A stretch of DNA of 64,000 nt, taken from assembly GCA_964387845.1 (NCBI GenBank), contig CAYLXA010000001.1:160001-224000 (forward strand), given 5' to 3'. The position numbers and the translations under genes were made by a program. The notes beneath the pieces were generated by a model, which had not been told where the DNA came from, ran no database searches, and saw only the letters and a list, made by a program, of their open reading frames with translations. Origin of the DNA: an uncultured bacterium. Lineage in GTDB: Bacteria > Omnitrophota > Omnitrophia > Omnitrophales > Abzuiibacteriaceae. Position 1 is the stretch's first letter; each line of letters opens with the position of its first letter. This document shows positions 3,933 through 21,390 of this stretch, in pieces.

Positions 3933-6900
3933 TTAGGCTTTGATGATGAGTTCGTGCGCATTTTGGAATTCTGCTCTTAACTCGCTTGAAAACTTGACGA
4001 TATTGAACAATCCTCTGATATCGTCGGCAGAACTTTCATCATCAATAACGCCGCGGTTTTTCATAGCAAGCGCAATCCCCCGGTCCTCTTTTAAGCCAAG
4101 CGCCTGGATAAAACCAACCTGTAGCTTCTTTTTTAAATAATGCGCCGCCTGATCGGGATATTGAAACACTTTCATTCGTTCATCGGCTTGAAAAGAAACG
4201 GCCGCGGCTCCGTCCGAAACCACCGCGACTTCATAACCTTGCGCTTTATAGTAACGCACAAGAAGCGGTGTCACGGTGCCCGCTTCGCGCGTTAAAATAT
4301 CCATCAAAATTACGCCGCGCTTTAAATGGAGATCTTGATTCGAGTCGCCGCTGATTTCAAACGTTCGGTTTAAATAATTTCTAAGTTCCGGCGTTAAAAA
4401 CAACCCCGGATCCGCATCGATTTGCCGCGCGGCTTCTCGCACGCTTGATTCCATAGTTTCTATATGCATCTCGAGCCCGTCAAACGGGTTTAGATGATCA
4501 AATCTTAACTCGGACTTGGCGCCATCACCTTTAACCAAGTAAGTGTAAATTTTCTGAAATTCATGTTCATAGCTTTCGGTAAATTTTTCTTCTTTCTCGG
4601 CCACGCGGCGATAATATTCCGAAGCTTGTCCGGTAACATACTGCCACAAGGTAAAATTTGTCTGATTTTGTTTATTAAAATCAGCCAACTGCTCTGCGTC
4701 TATTTCACCTTGCGCCTCTCCCTGGTGGCGTAGAAAAATCGGTATCTCCGGCCCTAGAAAAACTTCGGGAAAAAGCGCGGCAATTTGCCTGACGATGCTT
4801 AGGAAATCTTGGGACGGATCATTGTCTAAATTCTCTGAAATATCCTGAAGAATTTCTCGGTAGGCTTCCAAACCGAAGGCGTCCACTGGAAAATCATTTT
4901 GCTTAAAAAACTCAGCCCCGTGCGAGGCCGCTGTCTTATTCGGAACAAACAAAAGGCCATTGATCAGCGCGGAACCGTACTCCAATATTTTCTGCCTATT
5001 TTGAACAGGATCTTTTAGAAATTCTTTTAATGAAGGCAAAAACCCTTTGATTAAAATGGGCATCAATTGAATATCCAGTTCATCTGTCCCGATACGGTGA
5101 TCATGCCTTAAGTGCGGGCCCAGGATTCCGAATAAAAGAGCTGCTCCTTGCGCGGATTTTTGCGCAAGCGCCGCAGCGTTATCAAGAAAGACTTGGTCAT
5201 TGTCAGCAAATGACAAAAGTTTTTTAAGCAGCAGGCCGTCAGGTTCGGGAATTACATCATTCAAACGGCCGTCTTCATGCCCCCGCAGTTCGGAACGGTT
5301 TTCAATGGTAATCAAAACCTCTTCCTGTGCGGGGTTTTTGGTTGGAATCACCCTGACCTTAAATTCAAGTGATTCTGAAGCATCGTTCAATACAAATGTC
5401 CCGTAATCGGAACCGGCGCGCTGCCGTTCGATGGCAACATCTTTTGCTATTAACTTCACCAATGTAAAAAAGTGAAGCGCATTTCCGGCAGGTTTGGCAG
5501 TGAAATGCCTGGCAGAAATCTTGCTGTCTGAATCTTTAGACACGATTACGGTAACAACAGCACCGTTACGAATCAACCGCACAGATTTTGCCTGCTTCAA
5601 TTTGAAAACGGGTTTCAGCACATAAGATTGAACCAATTTTGAATAAGGAAGCGGTGTTTCATGGTTGGATGCGATTGACAATAAAAATCGGCCTTGATCC
5701 CGGTTCATGATCCAGAGTGCAAATTGCGCGCCCTTAAGCTCCAACCGTTCCCTTTCGGTCATCGTGCGGCTTTGGGTCAAGCGCTTCATATCCAACTTAT
5801 CAAAGCGCTCCAAGAGCCCATGGAACTTTCCGGGGTCGAGCAGCTCATCCGCGTCAACCTCGGAAAGCACAAGAAGAGTCAGTAAGTGGCCAAGCTGTCT
5901 AAATAACGGGCTTTTATCTCTAAAGTCCTCGAAAAGATTCTTCGCATCTTCAAGCAGGCTGCGGACTTCATCATAGGCAAGGCCAGATGCTGTCAAATAT
6001 CGCATTTTGCCCACCGCGCGCAAAAATTGCCCCTCTTGATCCATGGTTAATCCGACTTTATTTTCGGTTTCTGGATCATCCGGATTGATAATTTCGATGG
6101 GGTCAAGGCCTTCGCGGAAATCTTCCTCTAAAAATTTCTTCAATTCATCCGAACGTTTTCCCATTTCGATTAAAAGCTGGGATAACGCCCTTAATTCGGA
6201 ACGCTGCCCTCCGGCAGAGCCGTTTTGTGCATTATTGCGCTTCTTATAATTTGACACTTCAATAGACAAATCATTGATTTCATTGGCTAACGCTTCAACT
6301 TTAAAAATAAGCTTTCGATTTGGATTTTTTGGATCGGCGAGAATGAACGAGCCGATTTGATCAACATTTCCCCGGTTAATATCGATCTGCTGCGTAAAAA
6401 ATTGCAGTAAGGTTAAAAAATAAAACGCGTCTTGCTTTTCTAATTTGAACTTTTCAGATTTTATGACGTCGCGCTGTGCGTCTGAATCCAGATAGTAAAT
6501 TTCGACTGTATTTGTCTTTTGAACACGTTTGATTTTAATGAAGCCAATATCATCCTCTTTAAATGCCGGGTCTATGATCATTTGCTTTAATAACTGGCCA
6601 ACCTGAAACTGCCTGATCGCCAAATGAATAAAGCGGCCTTGATACTGTCTCATGCCGGCCAACAAGTATTTTGCCGCTGCCGCGATCAGCTTGTCCATCG
6701 GGTCCAGCGGCTGTCCGTTCCGTTCGGAATAATGAAATCTCATAGCTAAGCTGACCAGTTCGTGAAATATGTCGGTTTGAAAATATGTGTTGAGCTTTTC
6801 GGGCGTTCTTGCTAATTCGGTTTGAATTGTTTCGAGCTCACTTCGAAAACCATCGGCTACACTAATGTAGTGATAAGTACCCGCCGCAGAAATAGCTTGT

Positions 6901-9900
6901 GTCAAAAGCTGGTCGAAGCGCCGGTTGTGAACCAGATAAAATAGCGGCGGATAGGCACCATGCTCCAAATCAACTTGGCCAACCACATAGTCAAAGAAAT
7001 CTTTGACTGCTTTTTTTGCATCATTGTTGCCGAGCCGCATCATCACACTGTCTTTTTGCTTGACTAGTCTCTGCGTCAACAATTCTTCAATTTCAAATAA
7101 GCGCTGGCCCATCTCGGCCAAGTCGATTTCCAGTTTGCTCCATCCGCTATTTCCGATATCGCCCGATTTGGTTCGGAGTTCGGATCTTTCCGCAGGTTGT
7201 TTTTGATTATCAAACTCGGCGGTCAATTTAAACGATCTAGCATGTTCGGCGTCGAATGCTTCGAGCATCGGGTCGGCGTATTCGAAAAGCCAGCTAAAAT
7301 CTTTTTCTGCCTCGGGAGTTTTAAAACCAAAGTCTTCTGTAAAAATAGAGAAATCAACCTCAGGCCGGCCGCTCAATAAAAATGTAAGACTAAGCGGATT
7401 TTCTATCTCACGATTACCGTTGATTTCGTCCAGCCATGCTTGAAATAATGCGGCTAGGCGTATTTTCCTTTTATCCAAACTGCCGTCCGGACGCATGATA
7501 TGCCTTAAATTCTTCAGTTCGTTTGCAACCGCTTCGCGCCGCTCTTCGTCTGAAAATGATTGAATATAATCATCAAAGTTGCCGGGTGGCCCGATCTCCT
7601 TCAGAACTGCTTCTGCCAATACTACGAATTGCTCATAATGAGGCTGGGTGGCATACACAACATAACGCCGAAACCAATCCTTCATTTTGGGATCTTGATA
7701 ATAATCAAGAAGCCTTTTCATCGAAGGATCCTTTTGAGCCGACTCATAAAATGTCTCCCCTTTAAGGATCATCTTCCTGTTCAGGTCTTGGTCGAATCGA
7801 TAGCTGCCGTCCGGCTGTATCGCCAAACTAATATTGTTGCGGTGAATCTGCCGATATTTTTTAAATTGCACTGCCCGGGGATTATTCGTTTTTTCGGGAT
7901 AATGAATGAATTTTGCCACATTAATAAAGTACCGAATATTCATCAGCCGGAATTTTCTGGGAAGCCAAGCTGTATAATCATAATCGATGGCAGCCAAGGC
8001 ACTGTTGGGTTCGTCCTTAGATTGCGGCGCCTTCATCAGAACAATTTCAAAGGGTTTCAGCAAAGACCGCCCGTTCAGAGTCACTTCATTGCCGATTGCC
8101 AAACGGGACCCTTTGCTAATCAAACTGATAAATTCCCGGATCAAATTGCGATCCTCTTCGGTTTCGGCATATTTCAGATCTTGATCCAGGATAAAGCGAA
8201 GTTCTTCCGCCAGTCTGTCCATTTTCTCCGAATTCCCCGGCGGAACCCGGAGCGCAAACTGATCAAGCTTGCTGAAGCCAATAGACAAATCGACTGGATC
8301 ATACGGAACTTGCGGTGCCGGATCTTCAAATAGGCGATATTGCAAATCCCGCTTAAACCACCGGACAACGGGGAAATAATAAAATAATGCGGCAATCATC
8401 GATAGCACAGACCCAAAAACCGAGGCCCAAACTATCCGCTTCTTCAGAATTTGCCGTTTTGCATGCTTAAGCCGCTTCTGGCGCTCAAGCAGATTATTCA
8501 AAGCTTGTTTAGCAAGTGAAACGATGTGATGATCGCTATCCTCCGGGCCGAATTCAAACTGAATAACTTGCCCGCGCTTTGTTTCAAGTGCCGCGTATCC
8601 GGATTTTCCATTCTCAGGCAAAAGCACAAACGGTTTTTCCCATGGCCCATGGAAAACAAACGGCTCTTCGTTCGGTAATCTGAGAATCAATTTCTCAATC
8701 TCCCCGGGCCGTTCGGCTTGGCGCCTTTCTTCATCCAATCGTTGTTCGTTATTCCGCCAATCCCTTTTTATTTGCTGAACTTTTCCTAACGCGTCCGCCC
8801 TTTTGGCAGCCGTGGTCTCATCATCATGGAGCACATTTTGGTATTCTGTGTGGCCGAACAGTTTTGTCAGCAAATGATCACGGGATTGAGCGGTCGGAAG
8901 GCCATAAACAACCTCCGCCACGTGAAGCACTCCGCTTTCAATTGCGCTCCGGAGCGAATTTAACTTTGATGGCGTAGCATCAAGCTCTTTTCCTCTCGCC
9001 GGAATTAGATGAAACGGCAAATGACTTTTCCCGGAATCTAAGAATAAACTGATAGATCGTAGTTTTTTTCCGTTTAATTCAATTTCTTTTTTAAAGTTAA
9101 TTTGAATAGTTGATGGCTTGCCAGAATGATCCACGATGATTCGAGTGTGGCTGGAAAAATCGTTCGCCACACCGATAATTGTGTCGGCTATTTCTTTTTC
9201 AGGAACGAGCGGCCGAAAACCTAAATGAGTCCATATTTGAATAATACGTGGATCACGACTTTCGCCTTCTAATTTTAGAACGCTTCCGTTCTTAGACGAT
9301 AATTGATTCTGTGCTATGAATTCGATTTTGCCGTGAAGTTTATGATTCAACCTCGTTGGGTCTATGGTTTCAAGCCGCACCACTTCAGTGCTTGCGCGAA
9401 GCTCTGATCGCGGCGTAGTTTGATTAGTTGCAATTCTGGTAAAGACGAGATAATGCCAATAGCGCCCTGATTTGTAAAAAGCCGGGATGGCGCGCGATCC
9501 TGTAGAACTTTGCCATTCTTCAGGATGAATAAATTCGCGAAATGCTTTTAATATGGAATCGCCCGCTCCATCAAAATCGAACTCTAGCTCGTCAAAGGGG
9601 TACTCAAAAGTAATTTGGCCGCCCTCCGGAATCCTGGCAATTAACTGCCGAAACCACTCTTGCGAGAGCGAATCGACGTAGCGGTCGATATTTCCAAAAC
9701 GGACATGACGATAAGCCGGCTCTTGAAATAACAAGGCGGGATCCCGGATATCAACCCGGCGGATTTCTATTTGGTCACCGAGACGTAAGAATTTTTTGGC
9801 TCGTTTCGAAAAAGCCTCCACGAAAAACGAGCGGTCTGAGAAAATAAAATGATCATCACCGCTGATTTGTTTAAAAAAGTTCACGGCGTTGGTTCCTGAA

Positions 9901-12900
9901 GCCAGATCCAAAACCGGCAGTCTTCTTAATTTTGGATCATTTGAGTTCAAATAAACCGGCACTTCGTCGTCAAAATGTTTCGCCGAAAATGCCATCACGG
10001 CTGCAAACTCGCCTAACTTCTGCAAAAATAATCTTGCTTCGGGTAAATTTTCAAGATAAGCACGCTCCGAAAATTGAATGACTCTCTCTAATTCATCGTA
10101 AATATATTCAAAATCAGAAAACATTGGAAGCGATCGCACAACTTCCGGCCAAAACGTATCAAAATTCAAATAGTAATGATATTGAAATATCATTTGAGCC
10201 AAATATCCGTTGGCTTGCCGAAGGATTCGGCCACGCAAATCTTTGTAATCCTCGATTCCGAACTTTTCTAAAAGCTCGGTGGGCCACGGCTTTGAAACTC
10301 TACGGCTGCTGATTTGATGAAAAACGTGCAAGCTCAAAAACCCGACGGTAGAAGCAACTACAACCGGCCACATCAAGCTACGAAGCTCAGAACGAATCCA
10401 TTTATCCGATAAGTCATGCTGGATTTCGCGGAACTGTTCGCGCCATTGAATCAGCTCGGCGTTTCGTTTGCGTGCATCATCCGCAATTGCTTGAAGCGGT
10501 TTTGGCACCATGCTTTGAACATAATATTGAATATCCAATTGAGCAAACCAGTTCCCAAAACGATATCTTTCACCATCCGGAATTTGACTCAGGTTAAAGT
10601 TTTCATGTTTTAATTTGGAAATAGCGAGCTGCCCTGCCAAGCGAGTCGATAAAGCTCCTGAAAAATAAAGCTGGAGCAACTTTGTTAAATGAAAAAAGTA
10701 AACAAAGTTAAGCCCATTGTTGCCAAATAAAACAGGGTCAAATGCAAACGCATCCTCTCCGCCTTTTTCAGGCCTAAAGTAGAGATCGATTAAGTTCGAA
10801 TTAAAAGAAGCATCTTTGACGTGGGTTATTCCGATTTCCCGCCATATACGCACATCCAGATCACCAATTCCCAACGCGTGGCGTAAACTTCCAAATAAAT
10901 AAACTCGCGGATATAAATCCGATTCAGAATAGCTTTCTTTAGCGCGTACAAAATCGAGTGCCTTTTTCAACTCATCAACCAAAAGAATTGAATTTTGAAA
11001 ATGTTCTAAATTAGTATAAGGATGCGTCAGGTGAAAATACAGCCGATGAAGCATATTGTGGACAAAACTCACGCCATTGATTTCTTCAAAAAGCCGGAGA
11101 TCTGCGGGAAGCACTCTTAGGCGTGGAGACTTTTCTTTGTTCCAACTGCGGATCAGCTGTTCAATCTCAGAATTGATTTGGATGTAGTTTTCTGATGCGC
11201 CCGATTCGAGATCTGGTTTGGCTAGGTCTTTTGATAACTGGAATAACTGATCCTCCATCGACATAATTTTCATGAAAAAATCAAAATCATCATCTGTTAA
11301 AGATCTATGGATGCTTTTCTGAATTTGCTTCAGAAAATAAATCGTATTGTCGAGGAGAATTTTGTGCGCTGCATCCTGCGGTATGTCAAAATGATCGAAC
11401 ATTTTTTGCGCCATTTTTTCAGCGGTTGGATAGAAAAGCGGCTGACCCAATTCATTCATTCTGAGTTCAGAACGGCGAGCAGTCTTCAAGAAACCTGATG
11501 CACCTGCCAACACTTTGCCTGCTTCAGGTAAACTTAATCTTCGAAGGAGCAATGGTTTCACGTTCTTCGCGGCTTTTCGTCTAGCGACTAAATACAAGAC
11601 ACCTTCAAATTCGGTTGCCGCCTCTTTTAAAGTCAGTTCTCGAAGCGGTCCGTCAATACCGTACTTTTCCCAACTCGCGCTTCGGCTTAAGGGGAGGCCA
11701 AAAACCTGAACGTCGATGTTTCGCCGTCTGAAGAGATTGACTAATTCGGCATTTGTCTTGACGCCGCGCGGATTAAGGCTGGATTTGGTTGCGTAAAGCA
11801 GTACGGAATTTTGAACAACGACCGAAGCGCCCGGGCTCATATTTGCCAAAACTTCTCCCGCAACTTTTTGAGCATCAACGTAATTCAATAAATTTGAAAT
11901 GACAATGGTGTCAAATTGAGAATATAAATGCGGCGGACTTAGCTGAGAAGAAGGCTTGCCCTCACGAAGAACCAAATCGATTGCATGGCGATCCTCCGGG
12001 CTCATACTCTCGATCCGCTCAACATCCGCCCGCACAGTCAAAACGTTACCCTTCTGCTCAATATCCTTGGGTGGGCGGAGAGCAAGCGCCACGATTTTTT
12101 TCTTTGGATACATTACAGCTGACAAAGGATTGCCCCCATCCCCCAATTCTAAAATTCGATCCCCTAAACCGCCGGATCGTTCTAACGCTGAGAAAACAGT
12201 TGCTAAATCGCCTCGAAATGTGACATCTTCGTCCCTATAAAAATTCCGCCATAGAAATTCACGGCCGAGATTGGTCAATTCCAGCTCAGAGGTCTTGCCC
12301 ACCACACTGCCTTGAAACACGGACGACAAAGACACAGCCGCTCGATTGCCGTCCTGCATCTGTAAACTTAAATTTCCCTCAAAAGAAGAAGCGTGGATGG
12401 TTATTTTGATTGTTTTTTTATTCTCATCGTCAAATTCCAGAAAATAACTTTCGCTCAAACTTCCTCCGGTTGCGATTTTTTTCGAAAAAGGTTTTTCCTT
12501 GGTATAAAAAGAAATGTTTTTTTGAATCAGGCGGACAAATTTCTGTACTTCTTCCGGCACATCACCGATGGTTTTGAGATCACCTGTTTTAAAAGTTCCC
12601 TCGGCCGAGCCAACAAAAACGAAACCGGTTTCATACTGCGTAAAAAACTGAAATCGCGAGGCCTTCTCTGCCTGAGTTTCATTGGGAACTACTCGAATGT
12701 TGTACCAATCGCCGCTGACAGGATGATAAACCAATAATAAAAATCCATGGCCATTTAATTCGTCTGCAAAAAATAAGTCGCCAATTCTTGGGTTCTGTGG
12801 ATCGGGCTTTCTTCTGCTTTCAAAACTGCCCAAATAGCCGGCGGCCTGCAGGCGCGCTATCAGACGAATGGCGGCAGGGCTAAATGTTTCGCTTTGTTCG

Positions 12901-13286
12901 CGCAATCTTTCATCGGATAGGGCCCTAAAAATAAATTGACGCTTGTCGGTTCTTCGCCGGTAACGCGCAATAGAAAAGTCTTTTAAAAATTCATCAGCCG
13001 TGAGCGCTTTGCCGTTATATTTTTTAAGAAATCTGGAAAGTCTTTCAACGTCTTTCTTTAAAATGGAAATCCGCGAAGCCTGGTTTGCCAGCGCGCTTGT
13101 CCGCAATTCAGAACGGACAATAGCCGGATTTAAGTTCCGGAAGGAACGGCTCTTTAAATAACTTGCGGCTTTTTGAAAGAAGGCGGTGGCAGACGGAATA
13201 TCACTGTACGCAATGGTGCTTGTGAAGGTAAAACTCAGCAGGGTTGTGAGGGCAATGGTTTTGAATAAAGCGGACTTTAATTTCAC
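3933..13286 (-). CDS. Giant secreted multidomain protein (3117 aa) with recurrent RSELR pentapeptide motif, two methyltransferase-like motif-I segments, a nucleotidyltransferase-like GS...DLD motif and one internal TM helix
   Basis: Uninterrupted 9354-nt ORF with a GTG start and GGGAGCG upstream. N-terminal Sec-type signal peptide MKLKSALFKTIALTTLLSFTFTSTIAYS. Motifs ILELGDGGNPLS...DTIVISNLLNYVD, YLFGSLRHALGIGDLDVRI, VLDLASGTNAVNF. TM segment IVWASVFGSVLSMIAALFYYFPVV near aa ~1620. Confidence 0.8.
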   Translation of the reverse strand: MKLKSALFKTIALTTLLSFTFTSTIAYSDIPSATAFFQKAASYLKSRSFRNLNPAIVRSELRTSALANQASRISILKKDVERLSRFLKKYNGKALTADEFLKDFSIARYRRRTDKRQFIFRALSDERLREQSETFSPAAIRLIARLQAAGYLGSFESRRKPDPQNPRIGDLFFADELNGHGFLLLVYHPVSGDWYNIRVVPNETQAEKASRFQFFTQYETGFVFVGSAEGTFKTGDLKTIGDVPEEVQKFVRLIQKNISFYTKEKPFSKKIATGGSLSESYFLEFDDENKKTIKITIHASSFEGNLSLQMQDGNRAAVSLSSVFQGSVVGKTSELELTNLGREFLWRNFYRDEDVTFRGDLATVFSALERSGGLGDRILELGDGGNPLSAVMYPKKKIVALALRPPKDIEQKGNVLTVRADVERIESMSPEDRHAIDLVLREGKPSSQLSPPHLYSQFDTIVISNLLNYVDAQKVAGEVLANMSPGASVVVQNSVLLYATKSSLNPRGVKTNAELVNLFRRRNIDVQVFGLPLSRSASWEKYGIDGPLRELTLKEAATEFEGVLYLVARRKAAKNVKPLLLRRLSLPEAGKVLAGASGFLKTARRSELRMNELGQPLFYPTAEKMAQKMFDHFDIPQDAAHKILLDNTIYFLKQIQKSIHRSLTDDDFDFFMKIMSMEDQLFQLSKDLAKPDLESGASENYIQINSEIEQLIRSWNKEKSPRLRVLPADLRLFEEINGVSFVHNMLHRLYFHLTHPYTNLEHFQNSILLVDELKKALDFVRAKESYSESDLYPRVYLFGSLRHALGIGDLDVRIWREIGITHVKDASFNSNLIDLYFRPEKGGEDAFAFDPVLFGNNGLNFVYFFHLTKLLQLYFSGALSTRLAGQLAISKLKHENFNLSQIPDGERYRFGNWFAQLDIQYYVQSMVPKPLQAIADDARKRNAELIQWREQFREIQHDLSDKWIRSELRSLMWPVVVASTVGFLSLHVFHQISSRRVSKPWPTELLEKFGIEDYKDLRGRILRQANGYLAQMIFQYHYYLNFDTFWPEVVRSLPMFSDFEYIYDELERVIQFSERAYLENLPEARLFLQKLGEFAAVMAFSAKHFDDEVPVYLNSNDPKLRRLPVLDLASGTNAVNFFKQISGDDHFIFSDRSFFVEAFSKRAKKFLRLGDQIEIRRVDIRDPALLFQEPAYRHVRFGNIDRYVDSLSQEWFRQLIARIPEGGQITFEYPFDELEFDFDGAGDSILKAFREFIHPEEWQSSTGSRAIPAFYKSGRYWHYLVFTRIATNQTTPRSELRASTEVVRLETIDPTRLNHKLHGKIEFIAQNQLSSKNGSVLKLEGESRDPRIIQIWTHLGFRPLVPEKEIADTIIGVANDFSSHTRIIVDHSGKPSTIQINFKKEIELNGKKLRSISLFLDSGKSHLPFHLIPARGKELDATPSKLNSLRSAIESGVLHVAEVVYGLPTAQSRDHLLTKLFGHTEYQNVLHDDETTAAKRADALGKVQQIKRDWRNNEQRLDEERRQAERPGEIEKLILRLPNEEPFVFHGPWEKPFVLLPENGKSGYAALETKRGQVIQFEFGPEDSDHHIVSLAKQALNNLLERQKRLKHAKRQILKKRIVWASVFGSVLSMIAALFYYFPVVRWFKRDLQYRLFEDPAPQVPYDPVDLSIGFSKLDQFALRVPPGNSEKMDRLAEELRFILDQDLKYAETEEDRNLIREFISLISKGSRLAIGNEVTLNGRSLLKPFEIVLMKAPQSKDEPNSALAAIDYDYTAWLPRKFRLMNIRYFINVAKFIHYPEKTNNPRAVQFKKYRQIHRNNISLAIQPDGSYRFDQDLNRKMILKGETFYESAQKDPSMKRLLDYYQDPKMKDWFRRYVVYATQPHYEQFVVLAEAVLKEIGPPGNFDDYIQSFSDEERREAVANELKNLRHIMRPDGSLDKRKIRLAALFQAWLDEINGNREIENPLSLTFLLSGRPEVDFSIFTEDFGFKTPEAEKDFSWLFEYADPMLEAFDAEHARSFKLTAEFDNQKQPAERSELRTKSGDIGNSGWSKLEIDLAEMGQRLFEIEELLTQRLVKQKDSVMMRLGNNDAKKAVKDFFDYVVGQVDLEHGAYPPLFYLVHNRRFDQLLTQAISAAGTYHYISVADGFRSELETIQTELARTPEKLNTYFQTDIFHELVSLAMRFHYSERNGQPLDPMDKLIAAAAKYLLAGMRQYQGRFIHLAIRQFQVGQLLKQMIIDPAFKEDDIGFIKIKRVQKTNTVEIYYLDSDAQRDVIKSEKFKLEKQDAFYFLTLLQFFTQQIDINRGNVDQIGSFILADPKNPNRKLIFKVEALANEINDLSIEVSNYKKRNNAQNGSAGGQRSELRALSQLLIEMGKRSDELKKFLEEDFREGLDPIEIINPDDPETENKVGLTMDQEGQFLRAVGKMRYLTASGLAYDEVRSLLEDAKNLFEDFRDKSPLFRQLGHLLTLLVLSEVDADELLDPGKFHGLLERFDKLDMKRLTQSRTMTERERLELKGAQFALWIMNRDQGRFLLSIASNHETPLPYSKLVQSYVLKPVFKLKQAKSVRLIRNGAVVTVIVSKDSDSKISARHFTAKPAGNALHFFTLVKLIAKDVAIERQRAGSDYGTFVLNDASESLEFKVRVIPTKNPAQEEVLITIENRSELRGHEDGRLNDVIPEPDGLLLKKLLSFADNDQVFLDNAAALAQKSAQGAALLFGILGPHLRHDHRIGTDELDIQLMPILIKGFLPSLKEFLKDPVQNRQKILEYGSALINGLLFVPNKTAASHGAEFFKQNDFPVDAFGLEAYREILQDISENLDNDPSQDFLSIVRQIAALFPEVFLGPEIPIFLRHQGEAQGEIDAEQLADFNKQNQTNFTLWQYVTGQASEYYRRVAEKEEKFTESYEHEFQKIYTYLVKGDGAKSELRFDHLNPFDGLEMHIETMESSVREAARQIDADPGLFLTPELRNYLNRTFEISGDSNQDLHLKRGVILMDILTREAGTVTPLLVRYYKAQGYEVAVVSDGAAAVSFQADERMKVFQYPDQAAHYLKKKLQVGFIQALGLKEDRGIALAMKNRGVIDDESSADDIRGLFNIVKFSSELRAEFQNAHELIIKA

Positions 13287-13476
13287 GAAATGTAAAACGC
13301 TCCCTTACGCGAAGATTTATTGAGCTAAAGTGTAGCACTTTATCCTTATATTTTCAATATAATAGGTAATTTAATTTATATAAAATGTATTTAATAGTTC
13401 TATATAGTACTATAAAAATATAAGCTGAAATTTAAGTGTTGAATCAAAAAAACAAGGCGCGATATACTTTTTTGCT

Positions 13477-14547
13477 ATGGACCATACGCATCATCAAAAA
13501 ACAAACGGATCTGAATGCTGCCATCATTCGGAGCAGGCTCGCCGGAAAGCGCCGTGGTATCACAATAAGCTGACAATCATTTTGCTAGGCACTGCCCTGC
13601 TTTATGGCGTGTCTTTTATTTTTCAGCCTCTTCTTGCATTTCGCGAGTCATTTGACAGTTATTTGAAAATCATCGCCATTCCGATGCTCATTGGGCTTCT
13701 CTTGGGCGGCGTGATCGATTACTACATCCCGCAGGAATATGTCTCAAAATATTTAGCACGCACCACGAAACGCACTGTTTTTTACGCAACAGGCCTCGGA
13801 TTTCTGATGAGCGCCTGCAGCCACGGTATTTTGGCACTTTCCATGGAACTTCATAAAAAAGGCGCATCAGGCCCTGCGGTTGTGAGCTTTCTTTTAGCAA
13901 GCCCGTGGGCCAATTTGCCGGTCACTTTTCTTTTGATCGGATTTTTCGGGTGGAAAGGGTTTTTGATTATCTTGGCCGCATTTCTAGTTGCGATTACCAC
14001 AGGTCTCGCGCTTCAACTTTTAGACAGTCGGGGCCTGATTGAAAAGAACCGGCATACTTCTGCGGTGAACTCGGAATTTTCAATTTTGAAAGATATGAAA
14101 CGGAGATTTTCCGAATATGAGTGGACTTTCTCCAATTTATCCAAGGACCTGCGCGGCATCGGAAAAGGCTCTTGGGAGCTTTCGGAAATGATTTTATGGT
14201 GGATTTTAATCGGACTGATTCTCGCGAGCCTGACATCTGCGTTTGTGCCGCACGGAATTTTCCAGAAATATTTCGGGCCGACCTTGCTTGGCTTAGTGGC
14301 TACTTTGCTTTTGGCCACTATTTTTGAAGTTTGCTCGGAAGGCACATCGCCTTTGGCGTTTGAAATTTATAAACAAACGGGCGCATTCGGCAACGCGTTT
14401 GTTTTCTTAATGGGCGGCGTGGTAACGGATTACACCGAAATCGGGCTTTTGTGGATTAATCTTGGAAAACGAACTGCGCTTTGGACACTGGCGTTATCAA
14501 TTCCGCAGGTGTTTTTGATTGGCTGGGCGCTCAATATACTTTTCTAG
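13477..14547 (+). CDS. Predicted permease (DUF318/ArsP-like family) with N-terminal His/Cys-rich patch
   Basis: 356 aa, multi-TM. N-terminus MDHTHHQKTNGSECCHHSEQ. Transcribed divergently from the giant gene across a 190-bp AT-rich spacer. Confidence 0.55.
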   Translation: MDHTHHQKTNGSECCHHSEQARRKAPWYHNKLTIILLGTALLYGVSFIFQPLLAFRESFDSYLKIIAIPMLIGLLLGGVIDYYIPQEYVSKYLARTTKRTVFYATGLGFLMSACSHGILALSMELHKKGASGPAVVSFLLASPWANLPVTFLLIGFFGWKGFLIILAAFLVAITTGLALQLLDSRGLIEKNRHTSAVNSEFSILKDMKRRFSEYEWTFSNLSKDLRGIGKGSWELSEMILWWILIGLILASLTSAFVPHGIFQKYFGPTLLGLVATLLLATIFEVCSEGTSPLAFEIYKQTGAFGNAFVFLMGGVVTDYTEIGLLWINLGKRTALWTLALSIPQVFLIGWALNILF

Positions 14548-15416
14548 CCGATCCGGAGCCGGACGGTTTCCTGTTTACCGTCTTTCTCGATCACAATGCT
14601 GGTGGGCTTAATTTCAATGATCTTCGTATGGCCCACTTGATCGCCGGGGCGCCAGATTTTTCCATTAATCAAAACAACCGGGTCGGAAGCATCATACATA
14701 ATGCCTTCCAGCACTAAATCTTCATGAGGCGCAGATTCAGCCCATGTCTTGAAAGGATTACGGCCGAATTCCCGGAACCGTGTCTTGCCTGCTTTTCGCA
14801 ATTCAACCGACAATTGGCCTTGATCCATATAAATCAGCTTTTCGTCATTCTCCGGAACAAAAACGGATACCGTCAGTGGCCCCCGGAGAAAATCGCTTTC
14901 GGGATTAGGCGGTGAAAACCGGAATTCGTCAACCCGCATGACGGCTTGATCCAACTTTCCCAGTTGTGAAAGAAATAGCGCGACATCCTGATAACTACCG
15001 CGGATCGTCATATCGATCGGAATCCGCGATAAATTCGGAAGCAGTTTTTTCTCGCTTTCATTTAAATCGGTTTTTGCCCTGGGTGAAATAGAATCAAATT
15101 GCACATTAAAGCGTTTGCCGGTGCTTGTGATTTGTTCGATGTAGGTCGCAACATTATTTCCTGACGTAAACTTAGCGAGCTCTTCTTTTAATTCTGCATT
15201 CGCGGCGGGTTCATTCAGCCGGTCCAATTGCCAGACTTCCTCGCGGTAATGATCCAGCTGGCGGCGGGTCTCGTAATAACCACTTTTTGCCTTGTCCACG
15301 CGAAGCGCCATAACACCGACTAGTGCAAGCATCGCGCACCCGATGACGCCGATAGCGCTCATTGGAATATGCTTGTGCCCGATTTTGATATCAATTTTCA
15401 TGTCTGAAAACTTCAA
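14544..15416 (-). CDS. Pilus assembly protein, PilO-like N-terminal part with PilP/GspC-like C-terminal beta domain
   Basis: Single TM, a coiled coil, then IPIDMTIRGSYQDVALFLSQLGKL (PilO-like) and a C-terminal VVLINGKIWRPGDQVGHTKIIEIKPTSIVIEKDGKQETVRL. Overlaps the upstream gene by 4 nt. Confidence 0.5.
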   Translation of the reverse strand: MKFSDMKIDIKIGHKHIPMSAIGVIGCAMLALVGVMALRVDKAKSGYYETRRQLDHYREEVWQLDRLNEPAANAELKEELAKFTSGNNVATYIEQITSTGKRFNVQFDSISPRAKTDLNESEKKLLPNLSRIPIDMTIRGSYQDVALFLSQLGKLDQAVMRVDEFRFSPPNPESDFLRGPLTVSVFVPENDEKLIYMDQGQLSVELRKAGKTRFREFGRNPFKTWAESAPHEDLVLEGIMYDASDPVVLINGKIWRPGDQVGHTKIIEIKPTSIVIEKDGKQETVRLRIG

Positions 15417-17020
15417 ATCGCCTCTCCCAATATTGAAAAAGTGACTGATTTTTCATTCCGGTCAGACTCGGCCAAAGTAGGTTTTCGAAAAACCGGGCCT
15501 TCAATCTGCTCCAGTGATTTCGAGAGGAGCCCCTGCTGACTGTCGACCGGGAAACTGCCTTTAATGATAAACAAGCCTCTCTGATAAGAGAATTCGGATA
15601 AAGTCACTTCTCTCGGAAATGCTTGAGATAACTCCTGAAAAACATCCTCCCAGTAAGGTTCTGAGGAAAAAACTCCGGAGATCAGTGTTTTCACCTGCAT
15701 GCTTTTCTGACGGATTGCTTTCACTTTTTGCGCTTCTTCATATCCCGGCTGCAGGTTCGCAATTTGCAAATGTAAAGACTTTGTCTTATCTGAGATGGTA
15801 ATGGATTGCCAGGCCAGACTTGAAAACAGTAAAACAAAAGCGGTCAAAGCGGCAATGGCTGTTTGCCGGTACGAAAAGAATTTAACCGCGGAGTTCCCCA
15901 TCTTGAGCAAATCGGGAAGCCACGGCTTTTTTAAATTATGCCTATCTAAAATAATGCTGATAGGACGGTAAAAACCGTTCAAATCGTCTTCACGGAGTTT
16001 GTCGGAAATTTCAATGTCCTGGAAAAAATAAACGGGCTTAACGGGGACTTGGAGAGTTTGTTCCACAAATTGAATAAACCCCTTAAGTCGGCTTCCGCCG
16101 CCTGTGAGAAAGATACGTTCAATTCCTTCCCCGTGTTCCTGGGAGTAAAAATCAAAAGAACGCCGGAGTTCACCGGTTAATTTTTGTAAAACGGGCCGGA
16201 TGAGCGGATATAATTTTGAAGCTTCGATTTTGCCGGCAATCAAATTTTCATTTTCGGCACCCAAAAATACGCTCTCATGCCGTGCCCGATCGGCCTCTTC
16301 CATGGTTAGCGCAATGCGTCCTTTATCAGTCACGATAGGCTGCGTGAGCGCCTGGCTCAATAATTCGCCGCCGAAAGAAATTTTGCGCAGAAAATCAAGC
16401 CGGCCGCCCGCATAAAGCGCGATTTCCGCAATTTTATGGCCAATATCAACCACTGTTACCAAATGCCGCGTCGACTGTGCGAAGGCATACGGCAAATGAT
16501 CGACTTCGAAAGCTGCATTCGCCAATTCAAAAGAACTGCAGCCGGATTCGCGGAGAATGCCGGCCAATGTCTCATAAACCTTGACGGGAAGAGCTGTTAC
16601 TAAAACTGTCTGTCTAAGGTCCTTTTTTTGACCCGGCATAGGTACGATTTTGTAATCTAGTTTCGCTTCTTCGATGGCAAACGGGAGTTCATCTTTTACT
16701 TTCCATTTAATTGTGTCGACCAAGTCTTTTTGAGATATGTTCGGAACGACAAAAGACCCGAAATAAGTTTGGAGGCTGTTGGTTACTAAAAAAACGGTAT
16801 GGCGGCTCAAATCAAACCCGGACAAAGCTTTCGCGGCTGCTTGCTTCAGCGTTTCCCTGGCCTGAGCAACATCCTCGTAAGGCGGAACCGGAATGCTCCG
16901 TGCCTCCAGAAGATGGAACCGCTTTGCGGCCGTTTTTATCTGGACAATTTTGACAGAGGAAGAAGCGAACTCGATTGCCAAGAAGAAGCGTTCGCGGTTT
17001 TCGTTGGGCCAATTCAGCAT
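15413..17020 (-). CDS. pilM: Type IV pilus assembly PilM (actin-like ATPase) fused to a PilN-like membrane segment
   Basis: 535 aa. N-terminal ~350 aa is PilM-like (actin/FtsA fold). It is followed by the TM helix AIAALTAFVLLFSSLAWQSITI and a PilN-like periplasmic domain. Confidence 0.65.
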   Translation of the reverse strand: MLNWPNENRERFFLAIEFASSSVKIVQIKTAAKRFHLLEARSIPVPPYEDVAQARETLKQAAAKALSGFDLSRHTVFLVTNSLQTYFGSFVVPNISQKDLVDTIKWKVKDELPFAIEEAKLDYKIVPMPGQKKDLRQTVLVTALPVKVYETLAGILRESGCSSFELANAAFEVDHLPYAFAQSTRHLVTVVDIGHKIAEIALYAGGRLDFLRKISFGGELLSQALTQPIVTDKGRIALTMEEADRARHESVFLGAENENLIAGKIEASKLYPLIRPVLQKLTGELRRSFDFYSQEHGEGIERIFLTGGGSRLKGFIQFVEQTLQVPVKPVYFFQDIEISDKLREDDLNGFYRPISIILDRHNLKKPWLPDLLKMGNSAVKFFSYRQTAIAALTAFVLLFSSLAWQSITISDKTKSLHLQIANLQPGYEEAQKVKAIRQKSMQVKTLISGVFSSEPYWEDVFQELSQAFPREVTLSEFSYQRGLFIIKGSFPVDSQQGLLSKSLEQIEGPVFRKPTLAESDRNEKSVTFSILGEAI

Positions 17021-17027
17021 GATGATT

Positions 17028-17546
17028 TTAACTGGAAAAAGTGCCTGTTCCGTTGGTTATAAAAATATCATCGTCATTTTGGCCCGTTAACTTTCCATTA
17101 TTATCAATACCGGTAATATCCGCCGCGCCGTCTGGGCCATATGAAAATGCAACGTAATATTTACCGTTTCCGCTGACGGAATAACTATACTCCGCATTTG
17201 CGGTTCGGAATGGATCATACAGAACTTGCCTCAGAACACGCGGGCTGTCACTCGCTAAATCACTACTTTGCCAATCCGATCCCGTCGGATAGGTGCTGGA
17301 ATGATTTAAATAATAAGCGTTGACGGCCGTCTGGATTGCTCTTAAATCACCTTTGGCAGTTTCAATGTTTTTATGCTCGCTCATCCCGCGCATCCGGATC
17401 AGTGAAATTCCGAGAATAATCACGACAAGCGCCAAAACAAAAATCATTTCGAGGACCGAAAAACCTTTCTTTGTGAATCGATCCCCGACACACACTGCGC
17501 GATACACGAAATCAAACCTCCGCCCAGGAATTTGCTTTTTTGGCAT
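17028..17546 (-). CDS. Prepilin-type N-terminal cleavage/methylation domain protein (minor pseudopilin); start uncertain
   Basis: KKGFSVLEMIFVLALVVIILGISL matches the class III signal peptide (G-F-S-x-L-E). The ORF extends to 17660, but the real start is probably near or downstream of the ATG at 17546. Confidence 0.6.
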   Translation of the reverse strand: MPKKQIPGRRFDFVYRAVCVGDRFTKKGFSVLEMIFVLALVVIILGISLIRMRGMSEHKNIETAKGDLRAIQTAVNAYYLNHSSTYPTGSDWQSSDLASDSPRVLRQVLYDPFRTANAEYSYSVSGNGKYYVAFSYGPDGAADITGIDNNGKLTGQNDDDIFITNGTGTFSS

Positions 17547-18744
17547 AGGTGTAAGTGGTAGTCGTCGTAAAGCCCGCCGGCAAACTAACGGGCAAGTAAC
17601 TTGAATTGTAAGTAATGGCTGCTTGATTAATGATGTTATCGCTTTGAAGCTCATTGGCAACTACGCTTCCGTGAACCACGGCATCATCCTGCACATTGGC
17701 GTTATCCGTAAAAATAATTCCCTCAAATGTTGCTGAATTCAAAATTTTGACTTGTTGATTGGTTTCGGGCGCCATCAAAACCGAAACAACATCAGCGCTG
17801 TCCTTCACAACCACATTGTTTTGGCTGTAAACCAGGCCGCCGCCCTGAACGGTAGTTGTATCTTGAATGGTAATGGTTTTTGCCGAAATCAAATTGACCT
17901 GCGAGCCAATTCCTGCGCTATTTTTAACATCAACCGCTTTGGTTGCCACCAAGTTCCCGGGCCCGGTAACCGTGGCATTGTCTTTGATCGTAACGCTTTT
18001 GTAATAGACGGTTTGCCCGGATAAATTTAAATTAGACGTTCCCGAAAGCGTTAGGTTTGAAGCGGCGTTGGCTTCGGCTTGCACAATGGCGTTGTCGTAA
18101 GTTGTCTTTGTAAAGGAAGGCATGCTGGGCGCAGGACTCGGATAACTCGGCGCCTGGGTATAAGTTCCGCCGCCCGTGACCGAATCGGCATAAACAAGGC
18201 CATTAATGACTTGTGAATTATTTCTTACGATGACAGAATCGGTACCGGCGGTTGGGTTGTAATAGACATTGCCCGATACAACAACGGTATGCGCATTCGT
18301 ATTTCCGACTTTAAGCGTATGATTGCCGCTCGGATTAGTTCCGACAAAAACCGCGTAAGAAAATGCGCTTGGAAAATTAACGGTGGTTGTTACCGTTTCG
18401 GTTTGAGTTAACTGCCTTGATTGACTATTATAAGTACCGGTCGAGTTAATAATGACATCGTCAACCGGCCGGGACAAATCAACCGAATAGGAGCCGCCGG
18501 CAAAACTATTATTCGAGAAACTGGAAATCCCGCCTATACTTAATGTGATGTCACCGTTTTTAAGCCGGTTCACGGCATCCGCAATGCCTGCTTCGGCCAT
18601 CCAAAACGCTTTTGCATCATTGGCATGCACCGCGATGCCGCGCATATCCGTTGTCAGGCTCACAATCAGCCCGCCCACAACCGCGGACAAAACAATCATA
18701 ATGACAATAGACAAAAGAAGAACAAACCCGTTTTTTTTACGCAT
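17512..18744 (-). CDS. PilX-like minor pilin N-terminal domain protein with large Thr/Ser/Asn-rich beta-rich C-terminal domain (possible tip adhesin)
   Basis: MRKKNGFVLLLSIVIMIVLSAVVGGLIVSLTTDMRG...AFWMAEAGIADAVNRL (PilX N-terminal-like), then ~300 aa of repetitive T/S/N/V-rich sequence. Confidence 0.5.
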   Translation of the reverse strand: MRKKNGFVLLLSIVIMIVLSAVVGGLIVSLTTDMRGIAVHANDAKAFWMAEAGIADAVNRLKNGDITLSIGGISSFSNNSFAGGSYSVDLSRPVDDVIINSTGTYNSQSRQLTQTETVTTTVNFPSAFSYAVFVGTNPSGNHTLKVGNTNAHTVVVSGNVYYNPTAGTDSVIVRNNSQVINGLVYADSVTGGGTYTQAPSYPSPAPSMPSFTKTTYDNAIVQAEANAASNLTLSGTSNLNLSGQTVYYKSVTIKDNATVTGPGNLVATKAVDVKNSAGIGSQVNLISAKTITIQDTTTVQGGGLVYSQNNVVVKDSADVVSVLMAPETNQQVKILNSATFEGIIFTDNANVQDDAVVHGSVVANELQSDNIINQAAITYNSSYLPVSLPAGFTTTTTYTYAKKANSWAEV

Positions 18745-19246
18745 TGCGGGGCCTCACATAAGCGCTAACAGCCAGCGTATCGCTTCCGGCCGTTGCGCTA
18801 AGCCTTAACCGAGCCACATTGCCGGAACTGGTGATGGTTGTACTGAAAGGGGCATTCAAATTGGTTGTGATTAAATCGCCCGATCCGTAAGAAAAGCCTG
18901 TCACAGCCGCGCGCCTCAGATCATAACTCGTTTGATTAAACGCCGGCGGCCATACGTCGGCAGCGTTGTGTAAATAATAACGGTATTGAACATTTGAACC
19001 GCTTTCATGCAGGGTAAACGTTACCGCATGGTTGGAGACGGTAACAGCGTTGGCATTCCGAATGTCCCGCGTCATGCGCTCTAACGCAAAATACAGCTTC
19101 TCGTGCAAATCAGTCCGGTTTCCGATGTGATGCGAATTTCGCATGGCAACAATATAAACAAAAAGAATTGATGCGATTAAAAAAACGATGAGCGTAATCG
19201 TAAAAACCATTTCGAGTAACGTGAAACCGCGCTCTTGATTTTTCAT
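18737..19246 (-). CDS. Prepilin-type pseudopilin (GspJ/PilW-like)
   Basis: N-terminus MKNQERGFTLLEMVFTITLIVFLIASILFV (G-F-T-L-L-E motif). Confidence 0.7.
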   Translation of the reverse strand: MKNQERGFTLLEMVFTITLIVFLIASILFVYIVAMRNSHHIGNRTDLHEKLYFALERMTRDIRNANAVTVSNHAVTFTLHESGSNVQYRYYLHNAADVWPPAFNQTSYDLRRAAVTGFSYGSGDLITTNLNAPFSTTITSSGNVARLRLSATAGSDTLAVSAYVRPRNA

Positions 19247-19248
19247 GA

Positions 19249-19659
19249 TCAGCCATTCACCACATAAGTACTGAGTGTAACGCTCGTCTCGCCGTTAGGA
19301 ACAGTCCAATAAGTCGTTACATCGACTTTCTTTAAATAAGCAGGGACACTGGTCACTGTTACCTGCTGTTCAAATGTTGTGAGCAATGTTGTGCCTGTAA
19401 TATCAAAAACGAGGGAGCGGCCGCTGGAGGCAACACTGGCGAAAGAACTGTCTTTGATTTCTTCGAGTTTGCGCTGAGTCAAGGAAAGGGCAAGTGAATA
19501 ATTTTCGACATCACTTTGTCCAAAAACGCCGCGGTTCATGGCTTCCATTAAAGCGAAAATGCTGATCCCGACAATGAGTGTCGTGATCAGCACTTCCAAA
19601 ATCGTGAAGCCGCGTTTCGATTTTAACTGGTGTGAGCGATACTTAAGTTTGACAAACAT
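19249..19659 (-). CDS. Prepilin-type pseudopilin (GspI/PilV-like)
   Basis: KRGFTILEVLITTLIVGISIFALMEA near the N-terminus. Confidence 0.7.
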   Translation of the reverse strand: MFVKLKYRSHQLKSKRGFTILEVLITTLIVGISIFALMEAMNRGVFGQSDVENYSLALSLTQRKLEEIKDSSFASVASSGRSLVFDITGTTLLTTFEQQVTVTSVPAYLKKVDVTTYWTVPNGETSVTLSTYVVNG

Positions 19660-19678
19660 TCCATTGCGATGAATCTAA

Positions 19679-20152
19679 TTACGCAGAAAGTTGCCCGTTT
19701 GTCACATAAATATCATCGTCAACTTCGCCGACAACGATATTGCCGCTGGCATCCGGCACTGTGCTAATATCCGCGGTCCGGTCCGGTCCGACCGAATAGA
19801 TGACATAATATCTGCTGTTGGCGGAAATTTTATATTTATAGGGCGAACTTGCGGTGAACGGATCCACGAAATCGCTGACCTCTCCAACCATCCGAGGCGT
19901 AGCACCTTCCAGAGCGCTTTCTAAATCGGCAGTCGTGCCTGCGGTAGCGGCCGGAAGCGTCGGGCTTGTACGCAATAAATAAGACTCGAGCGCGGTTTGG
20001 AGCGTCCTTAATTCTGCAGCAGCCTTGGCTTTTCGGCCTTCATCCGAAACGCCCGTAAACCTGGGCAGCGCAATGCCGACGATAATCAAAATAAGCGTGA
20101 TAACCACCAAGATTTCGAGCAATGTAAAACCTTTTTCTGATTTCAACACCAT
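19679..20152 (-). CDS. gspG: Type II secretion system protein G / major pilin-like pseudopilin
   Basis: MVLKSEKGFTLLEILVVITLILIIVGIALPRF, and the C-terminal region resembles the GspG fold. Confidence 0.75.
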   Translation of the reverse strand: MVLKSEKGFTLLEILVVITLILIIVGIALPRFTGVSDEGRKAKAAAELRTLQTALESYLLRTSPTLPAATAGTTADLESALEGATPRMVGEVSDFVDPFTASSPYKYKISANSRYYVIYSVGPDRTADISTVPDASGNIVVGEVDDDIYVTNGQLSA

Positions 20153-20175
20153 GATGAAACTCCTCCTTCGTTTGT

Positions 20176-21384
20176 TTATTGAGGGCTGAAAATTTTAATC
20201 ATATCGAAAATAGGAAGCAGAATAGAGAGCATGATAAAGCCGACTATTACCCCCATGAAAAGAACAAAAAACGGCTCGAGGCTGTCTGTTAACTTCTTGA
20301 GGCTTCTTGCGATCAGTTCGTCATAAAAGCTGGCAATTTTATGCAGCATTTTATCGAGGCTGCCCGAATGTTCGCCGGTTGCCACCATCTGAACTACATC
20401 GTTCGGGACAGCCGAACTCTTCTGTAACGTATCGGCTAACTTGCCGCCACCCTGAACGGATTCATAGGTTTTTTTAAAGATATCCTGAAAGATACTATTC
20501 GATGTTAAATTTTGTGAAATTTCGAGCGTTTGCAGAATATTCACGCCGCTTGAAATCATGAGCGCCACGCTGCGGCTCCAGCGGCTGATTTCGATTCGCT
20601 TGATTAATAATCCAACCAGCGGAAATGACAGCCAAAAACTGTCCCATGCCCGCCGGAAAAATTCAATTCGCATAAAAACCGGAAATAAAGCGGCAAACAC
20701 CGCGAAAAACGCCAAGATCCAAAAACCAAACTGCCGCATCCACAAGCTGAGGTTATAGACCATTTGCGTGGGCAACGGAAGCGATACGCCTGATTTGCTG
20801 AAAATCGTAATAAAAGAAGGCACAACCCATACCATCATAAATGCTACCACCGCGACACTGGCCAGCATCAGAACGATCGGATAAGCAAGCGCAGAACTGA
20901 TTTTATGATTGAGTTCCGATTTGGCTTCTTCCAGCTGTGCCACATAACGCAGAACCTGCGATAAATTTCCGCCGGCCTCCCCCACTTTCATCATGGCACG
21001 ATACAGAGACGGAAATAGATGTTCGTGATGCGCTGATGCTTCTGACAAACTTTCACCGTTTTCGATCCGGGCAATCAGATTCTTAACGGTTTCTTTAAAA
21101 GATTGATTTTCAACCTGATGAACAATTGTTTGAAGTGCGGAAAGCATCGGAAGACCGGCTTCCAGCATGTTGCTGAGCTGCACGTAAAAAAGTATCACAT
21201 CGTCTGGCGAAACACGGTTTCCAAAACTCATCGCAACTGGCGAAGCTTTCGAGCGTTTGATGGATGCGACTAAGTAACCCTGCTTAACCAACTGATCAGC
21301 CAGCGCCTTTTCGGAAATCGCTTCCGTAATTCCTTGCACTTTCCTGCCGGATTGATCATGGACTTTATAAACGTAAGAAGGCAT
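20176..21384 (-). CDS. gspF: Type II secretion system F / type IV pilus platform protein PilC
   Basis: 402 aa with two GspF repeats and 3 TM helices. Confidence 0.88.
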   Translation of the reverse strand: MPSYVYKVHDQSGRKVQGITEAISEKALADQLVKQGYLVASIKRSKASPVAMSFGNRVSPDDVILFYVQLSNMLEAGLPMLSALQTIVHQVENQSFKETVKNLIARIENGESLSEASAHHEHLFPSLYRAMMKVGEAGGNLSQVLRYVAQLEEAKSELNHKISSALAYPIVLMLASVAVVAFMMVWVVPSFITIFSKSGVSLPLPTQMVYNLSLWMRQFGFWILAFFAVFAALFPVFMRIEFFRRAWDSFWLSFPLVGLLIKRIEISRWSRSVALMISSGVNILQTLEISQNLTSNSIFQDIFKKTYESVQGGGKLADTLQKSSAVPNDVVQMVATGEHSGSLDKMLHKIASFYDELIARSLKKLTDSLEPFFVLFMGVIVGFIMLSILLPIFDMIKIFSPQ

Positions 21385-21390
21385 TGCTTA

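Follow-up and report, generated by a model that had tools for sequence, protein, structure and literature searches.

A cysteine-free, modular giant protein of an uncultured Omnitrophota bacterium with RSELR peptides at its module borders

We analysed a 64,000-nucleotide stretch of DNA, here called the window, from an uncultured Omnitrophota bacterium (family Abzuiibacteriaceae; assembly GCA_964387845.1, contig CAYLXA010000001.1, positions 160,001 to 224,000), and within it a giant open reading frame (ORF) at 3933..13286 on the minus strand that encodes a protein of 3117 amino acids. The 9.35-kb frame is uninterrupted and starts with a GTG codon, with a Shine-Dalgarno-like AAGGGAG 13 nucleotides 5′ of it in an AT-rich intergenic region. 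Upstream of the ORF, the same strand carries a type II secretion/type IV pilus-like locus (14544..23088, minus strand) with five pseudopilin-like genes and genes for GspF, PilM, PilO and a GspE-type ATPase that has an MshEN domain; an ArsP-type permease is encoded on the opposite strand between this locus and the giant gene. All features of the giant protein given below are on the minus strand. The peptide strings quoted in an initial annotation of this DNA, which had seen in the ORF two methyltransferase-like segments, a nucleotidyltransferase-like motif and a mid-protein transmembrane (TM) helix, were all found in its translation, with coordinates displaced by no more than about 15 nucleotides. 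An antisense ORF of 257 amino acids at 7560-8333 (plus strand) is probably no gene, as it lies wholly within the giant ORF and has no supporting evidence.

The most distinctive features of the giant protein, neither of them in the initial annotation, are a recurrent RSELR peptide that delimits its modules and a complete lack of cysteine. Nine copies of the tetrapeptide SELR are present, seven as RSELR and one each as KSELR and SSELR, against an expectation of 0.12 (Poisson P 1e-14); a count of nine was reached in none of 2000 shuffles, and the six reading frames of the window contain only two SELR besides these. The nine copies vary in their codons and draw on each of the two codon families for Ser, Leu and Arg, so that it is the peptide, rather than repeated DNA, that is under selection. 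Cysteine is found at none of the 3117 positions, compared with about 21 expected from its frequency in neighbouring ORFs (0.67%). Relatives of the protein, each given a P number here, are likewise poor in cysteine, with none in the 7439 residues of P0007, none in the 3573 of P0018 and two in the 5947 of P0002.

Eight modules, M1 to M8, are separated by the nine [RKS]SELR copies, which end polar linkers rich in Gly, Ser, Asn, Gln and Pro and stand immediately ahead of the next module. The first copy (VRSELR; residues 59-62, 13101..13112) lies about 30 residues past the signal peptide, the second (residues 606-609, 11460..11471) marks the M1/M2 border, the third (residues 966-969, 10380..10391) directly precedes a TM-like segment and the fourth (residues 1294-1297, 9396..9407) aligns with one of the RSELR copies of P0002 and falls within the tail of our structural model of M3, where the predicted local distance difference test (pLDDT) score is below 50. 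Copies five (residues 2035-2038, 7173..7184), six (residues 2363-2366, 6189..6200), seven (residues 2665-2668, 5283..5294) and eight (KSELR; residues 2925-2928, 4503..4514) mark the M4/M5, M5/M6, M6/M7 and M7/M8 borders, respectively, and the ninth (SSELR; residues 3101-3104, 3975..3986) is 13 residues from the C-terminus. Module M4 (residues 1298-2034, 7185..9395) is without detectable relatives and holds a strong TM helix, and neither M7 (residues 2669-2924, 4515..5282) nor M8 (residues 2929-3100, 3987..4502) gave a profile or Protein Data Bank (PDB) match. Modules M5 (residues 2039-2362, 6201..7172) and M6 (residues 2367-2664, 5295..6188) are paralogues (window 5295-7172; 25% identity, E 5e-5) and constitute the sole internal duplication. 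The idea that the modules are tandem duplicates was rejected, the sequences between delimiters being unrelated save for this pair.

Most of this protein is dark to standard searches. Neither the whole protein nor any single module matched Pfam, NCBIfam or PADLOC, even at E≤10, and phmmer found no PDB match for M1, M2, M3 or residues 1298-3117. The protein stands alone in its own 90%-identity cluster within a collection of 5.8 billion protein clusters and is recorded once at NCBI, on a 409-kb contig, and once in a Logan assembly; scanning genomes and metagenomes, be it with the whole protein or with an alignment of P0001 and P0002, returned nothing. The homologues described below come from a full HMMER search, in which residues 320-1300 were compared with 1.84 billion representatives and gave 84 matches. 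A word-indexed search returned the query itself, the fragment P0062 or nothing, and so missed the relatives found by the full HMMER scan.

Module M1 (residues 63-605, 11472..13100) consists of a conserved N-terminal domain followed by methyltransferase-fold domain 1 (residues ∼345-575, 11562..12254), and is conserved in its entirety in P0004, P0005, P0009, P0011 and P0012, of which P0011 is a stand-alone M1-like protein of 581 amino acids with its own signal peptide. The N-terminal part (residues ∼63-330; window 12300-13100) is a conserved domain of unknown function that always precedes methyltransferase domain 1 in these five proteins. Residues 331-583 matched four other giant proteins and also about 50 small proteins of 200-260 amino acids (E 1e-8 to 1e-3). 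When six of these small homologues were scanned against Pfam, two (P0035 and P0037) scored above the Methyltransf_23/_11 gathering thresholds and three more gave sub-threshold methyltransferase matches, while the best PDB matches of the family profile, albeit weak (E 0.03-1), were all S-adenosylmethionine (SAM) methyltransferases. Since small homologues pass the Pfam thresholds and the profile leads to SAM methyltransferases, homology identifies the first methyltransferase-like segment of the initial annotation, represented by DRILELGDGGNPLS (residues 376-389, 12120-12161) and DTIVISNLLNYVD (residues 459-471, 11874-11912), as a genuine class I methyltransferase-fold domain. The assignment of DTIVISNLLNYVD to motif III did not survive, as the family alignment places it on the beta4 strand, that is, motif IV. 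In the class I methyltransferase fold an aspartate at the end of beta2 binds the ribose of SAM. This residue is an aspartate in 20 of 20 aligned homologues and an alanine in the giant protein (IVALALRPP), a loss that argues against activity; methyltransferase 1 may be a non-catalytic binding domain.

The stretch of methyltransferase-fold domain 2 (residues 1000-1290, 9417..10289), in M3, has the most relatives, many of them within proteins of 2000-7500 amino acids. Across the two methyltransferase-like segments, significant homologues reached E values as low as 1e-59. In a 20-sequence alignment of domain 2 (numbered by its first sequence) the glycine of the LDLASG loop and the aspartate at the end of beta2 (FxD) are invariant (G132 and D152), with near-invariance for the loop aspartate (D128, 90% or more of the sequences) and a PGG strand. 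An AlphaFold2 model built on this alignment (pLDDT 83.9; predicted template modelling score 0.83) comprises a bundle of five helices and, after it, a Rossmann-like sheet of seven strands in the expected order that ends in a beta6-beta7 hairpin. Foldseek returned 979 PDB matches to the model at E≤1e-3 (best 3.8e-8, probability 1.0), and all of the top 50 are SAM-dependent methyltransferases. By sequence, the family profile found methyltransferases in the PDB weakly (E 0.03-0.6) and domain 2 had no Pfam match even at E≤10. The methyltransferase character of segment 2 (PVLDLASGTNAVNF; residues 1124-1137, 9876-9917) is thus borne out by a confident model whose top fold matches are all methyltransferases. 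With its SAM-binding aspartates retained, methyltransferase 2 is probably active. Aligned by hhalign, the two domain families gave a probability of 95.8% (E 8e-9), which identifies them as distant paralogues at the level of sequence profiles, and they belong to one divergent subfamily and share its specific N-x-x-x-Y-V element in beta4. M3 also has a stand-alone homologue, the 367-residue P0008, in which a strong N-terminal TM helix precedes the methyltransferase module. Judging from P0011 and P0008, M1 and M3 are autonomous units that occur elsewhere as proteins in their own right; both stand-alone proteins (signal peptide plus M1, TM helix plus M3) start and finish about where the delimiters lie. 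Among 185,579 species representatives, three genome loci with the M3 module were found, in metagenome-assembled genomes labelled Planctomycetales, Planctomycetia and Omnitrophota.

Module M2 (residues 610-965, 10392..11459) is mostly helical and carries the nucleotidyltransferase-like motif YLFGSLRHALGIGDLDVRI (residues 796-814, 10845..10901). Its only relatives in the HMMER scan were P0003 (1002 amino acids) and P0062, a fragment that stops just short of the motif. P0003 keeps the motif almost exactly (HLYGSARHTLGIGDLDVRI), together with a downstream aspartate (IDVY in P0003, IDLY in the giant protein), and this near-identity indicates that the motif is functionally constrained. The motif reads FGS, eight residues, DLD, one residue short of the spacing of 9-13 in the signature quoted for it, and residues 610-965 gave no nucleotidyltransferase match in Pfam, nor in the PDB by sequence or by profile. 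An AlphaFold model from a three-sequence alignment was poor, with a pLDDT of 55 overall and below 40 at the motif, and its best Foldseek match had an E value of 2. Of the Pol-beta signature proposed in the initial annotation, the presence of the motif and its conservation in P0003 stand, its spacing falls one residue outside the quoted range and the Pfam and PDB-profile searches do not support the assignment; we regard the nucleotidyltransferase identity of M2 as a lead.

Topology was assessed by a hydropathy scan of 19-residue segments and by counting flanking charges, using simple scales. The most hydrophobic segment, residues 1618-1636, is clearly membrane-competent and belongs to a strong TM helix (IVWASVFGSVLSMIAALFYYFPVV; residues 1618-1641, 8364-8435). 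The second (residues 10-28, N-flank charge +3) is the core of what reads as a Sec-type signal peptide (residues 1-28, 13203..13286), composed of MKLKSALFK, the hydrophobic core and AYS. The third, residues 971-989 (10320..10376), is a weaker, TM-like segment right after the third RSELR that would anchor M3; it is marginal by hydropathy, and the next-best segment is far weaker. The strong TM helix of P0008 at the equivalent place supports residues 971-989 as a real anchor. Flank charges are +2 after residues 971-989 and +8 before residues 1618-1641, with 0 and +1 on their outer sides, so that by the positive-inside rule the two segments point to an out-in-out topology, in which, most likely, the signal peptide is cleaved, residues 29-970 are outside the cytoplasm, 990-1617 are cytoplasmic and 1642-3117 are outside. 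M1, with the degenerate methyltransferase 1, and M2 would accordingly lie outside and methyltransferase 2 in a cytoplasmic loop; the signal peptide ahead of the M1-like module in P0011 is consistent with M1 as an exported unit. The proposal of an exported, membrane-threaded giant protein is thus supported by the signal peptide and TM-like segments. The mid-protein TM helix of that proposal is indeed the most hydrophobic segment, but it is not the sole one, residues 971-989 having been missed, and because of this second segment the division into some 1600 residues on each side of the membrane is probably wrong.

Recurrent short peptides are also found in relatives. The closest of these, P0002 (5947 amino acids; 44% identity in M3), has 11 SELR, one of which aligns with the copy at residue 1294 of the giant protein and others of which lie near both termini; its genome is related to that of the window (FtsH 74% identical). 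P0039 (4484 amino acids) carries RSE[VIML]R six times. P0018 (3573 amino acids) carries SE[AS]R seven times among ten SExR, with SEAR no more than 30 residues from either end of its M1-like module, and a second giant protein of 1971 amino acids at the same locus has ten SExR. The peptides differ altogether in other relatives: GFGA occurs eight times in P0007 and nine times in P0010 (7556 amino acids), RTSP, followed by M, V, I, F or L, 15 times in P0049 (6474 amino acids) and D[EQN]AML nine times in P0026 (3159 amino acids). Of the 23 long homologues, 6 had exact 4-mer counts above every shuffle, at median spacings of roughly 290-860 residues, as for SELR in P0002, RTSP in P0049, GFGA in P0010 and P0007 and DxAML in P0026. 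A DxAM-type peptide also follows the final strand of the domain by 8-20 residues in several homologues of M3. GARL[SAV] is shared five times by two successive long ORFs (1358 and 1948 amino acids) of a further metagenome-assembled genome (CAZJAX010000080; locus L003), suggesting that the delimiters are specific to a genome rather than to a protein.

Two further observations concern these relatives. A second architectural group, comprising P0013, P0016, P0019, P0020, P0022, P0026, P0043 and others, none with a known function, has in common DxAML delimiters and two regions, DNPF-x-FDFI-x-D at the N-terminus and a conserved GGIDLNP...GFxPVI...LxxFLG at the C-terminus. Many relatives (P0002, P0007, P0010, P0018, P0049, P0059, P0008 and the protein at 12911-18826 of locus L006) end in -AA, their C-termini being AIAA, AAAA, RMAA, SQAA, ESAA, ETAA, KRAA and LAAA, compared with IIKA in the window protein; these ends, one of them on a stand-alone module, resemble tail-specific protease or ssrA-like C-terminal signals.

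The reading that we favour, at a probability of about 0.5, is a modular 'beads-on-a-string' envelope protein of the kind known from Omnitrophota and the wider Planctomycetes–Verrucomicrobia–Chlamydiae (PVC) group, possibly a polyprotein that is cut at RSELR. That the delimiters are protease sites with arginine at P1, and the product a polyprotein, is a more tentative proposal to which we give somewhat less than even odds. The signal peptide would export residues 29-970; the chain would then pass through the membrane at 971-989, form a cytoplasmic loop in which methyltransferase 2 would act, and cross again at 1618-1641, leaving the remainder outside, and methyltransferase 1 would lie outside, perhaps for binding only. 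A trypsin-like protease would cut RSELR after its arginine, and the precursor would thereby yield about eight separate envelope proteins. A gene for a small secreted trypsin-like serine protease (Trypsin_2, E 2e-26) is present at 38988-39761 on the plus strand, and a homologue lies two genes from that of P0002 at locus L005. In both genomes, however, the gene is syntenic with aroD-tilS-ftsH-folP, which probably explains its closeness, and we rejected a functional link based on proximity.

Several points weigh against cleavage and the arrangement just described. The giant protein has no recognisable protease domain, cutting at RSELR is deduced from sequence, and, given the conserved synteny, the closeness of the trypsin-like gene in L005 need not be functional. 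The main difficulty is that the site at residue 1294 is predicted to be cytoplasmic and the other eight outside, so that one protease could not reach them all; this topology is itself drawn from hydropathy and charge, with a marginal TM segment at residues 971-989. Nor are delimiters universal, since 17 of the 23 long homologues have no exact 4-mer recurrence above shuffles, although P0018 and P0039, which are among the 17, nonetheless carry the degenerate SExR motif.

Some of these points favour a protein that remains one uncut chain, in which RSELR would be a linker or docking element recognised by a chaperone, by secretion or pilus machinery or by a partner, or a structural cap where each module starts. 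We consider this a possible alternative of below even probability. It would account for the failure to find a protease domain in the giant protein and for the one site in nine predicted to lie across the membrane from the others; the nearby secretion locus could need repeated recognition signals, and cleavage has not been demonstrated in the Omnitrophota literature. An uncut chain does not, however, readily explain why the motifs flank the first and last modules, leaving an N-terminal piece of about 30 residues and a C-terminal tail of 13, as is typical of precursors, nor why modules occur elsewhere as independent proteins, and the wholly different chemistry of the delimiters from lineage to lineage (RSELR, GFGA, RTSP, DxAML) fits protease sites that co-evolve with their enzymes better. 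The model of the initial annotation, with a single TM helix, some 1600 residues on either side of it, and an active Pol-beta nucleotidyltransferase and two methyltransferases forming an envelope modification or effector machine, appears improbable to us. Its methyltransferase folds were confirmed, the GS...DLD motif and the downstream aspartate (IDLY/IDVY) are kept in P0003 and the TM helix at 1618-1641 is strong, but the second TM-like segment alters the topology, methyltransferase 1 is without the beta2 aspartate kept by all 20 aligned homologues, and for the nucleotidyltransferase the motif spacing is 8 instead of 9-13, neither Pfam nor the PDB-profile search gave a match, and the low-confidence model (pLDDT 55, dropping under 40 around the motif) had a best fold match of E=2. 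By far the least probable account is that the recurrence does not arise at the protein level but from a DNA repeat, an effect of composition or a mis-assembled or fused pseudogene. The giant gene is a single copy among about 15 billion public proteins, as an artefact might be; yet the codon differences between SELR copies and the significant homologues of the domains effectively refute this account, the count is unmatched by any shuffle and the unbroken 9.35-kb frame was recovered independently in the NCBI record and the Logan assembly.

Returning to the modular envelope protein, its closest parallels are the Omnitrophota giants, long multi-enzyme proteins with a signal peptide and TM segments that include the 'Archaeovorin' type; among them the methyltransferase family PF08241 is one of the commonest embedded domains, 15% of the catalogued proteins are without a Pfam match and type II secretion/pilus genes lie beside 13 of 14 giants (10.1101/2023.11.21.568195; 10.64898/2026.06.07.730766). 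The window protein resembles these in its signal peptide and TM segments, embedded methyltransferases, Pfam-dark stretches and the secretion/pilus-like locus ahead of its gene, and so to call the architecture unusual, as the initial annotation did, overstated the case. It differs in that its 3117 residues are far below the 30,000-residue 'giant' class of West-Roberts et al. and in that searches revealed neither a glycosyltransferase nor a hydrolase, NUDIX or peptidase domain in it. The best reading is that of a small, Pfam-dark variant of the secretion-locus-associated giant envelope proteins of PVC/Omnitrophota bacteria. West-Roberts et al. suspected proteolytic processing of such proteins, the cleavage points being unknown, which blocked their analysis (10.1101/2023.11.21.568195). 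Searched by term, the texts of that paper and of 10.64898/2026.06.07.730766 gave no match for cleavage sites, recurring motifs or cysteine; a literature search on RSELR matched only the software name varSelRF, and one on bacterial polyprotein cleavage motifs found nothing relevant.

The window protein can also be set beside better-known systems. MARTX toxins are large secreted proteins whose effector modules are borne on linkers that are cut for release, and they contain an internal cysteine protease domain and RTX repeats. Like them, the window protein is a large exported protein of independent modules joined by linkers, with cutting here a proposal; unlike them, it has no cysteine and, in the absence of any Pfam match, no RTX or protease domain. 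In viral polyproteins and multi-cassette precursors a short conserved recognition peptide flanks each unit, including the first and last. An RSELR-type peptide likewise flanks every unit of the window protein, ends included, the differences being a cellular host, no cognate protease identified and cleavage that is putative. As for class I SAM methyltransferases, domain 2 shares their seven-stranded Rossmann-like fold, the Asp and Gly of motif I, the beta2 aspartate and the PGG strand, and homologues of domain 1 pass the Pfam thresholds of the Methyltransf_11/_23/_25 clan. Neither domain reaches a Pfam threshold itself, however, domain 1 has alanine for the beta2 aspartate, and the subfamily-specific N-x-x-x-Y-V of both families sets them apart.

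Whether giant bacterial proteins work as one chain or as cut pieces is an explicit open question, to which border peptides under protein-level selection contribute concrete candidate cleavage points, making processing directly testable. We tentatively propose, with confidence short of even, that lineage-specific delimiters (RSELR, SExR, GFGA, RTSP[MV] and DxAML) are the processing sites that have long been sought in giant PVC/Omnitrophota proteins. If so, such giant genes would be operon-like polyproteins that supply envelope or effector proteins, free of cysteine, in sets of fixed stoichiometry, and each lineage would have a co-evolved protease. The delimiters also offer a simple way of segmenting giant proteins for structure prediction. 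The near absence of cysteine and the predicted out-in-out topology would, moreover, limit where the embedded methyltransferases can work, the intact one facing the cytoplasm and the degenerate one lying outside.

A few other features of the window were recorded. A response regulator is also encoded within the secretion/pilus-like region (window 14544-23462). The minus-strand ORF at 56260-59583 encodes a 1107-residue protein that consists of little other than HEAT repeats (HEAT_2, 15 stretches). At 90% identity, the window proteins encoded at 21391-23088, 20176-21384, 40544-42370, 48761-50575 and 33026-33772 are singletons among about 15 billion proteins; that even conserved housekeeping and secretion proteins are singletons indicates that the organism belongs to a sparsely sampled lineage. 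One of these singletons (40544-42370, minus strand) is a DCC1-like thiol-disulfide oxidoreductase fused to a lipase maturation factor (LMF1) domain.

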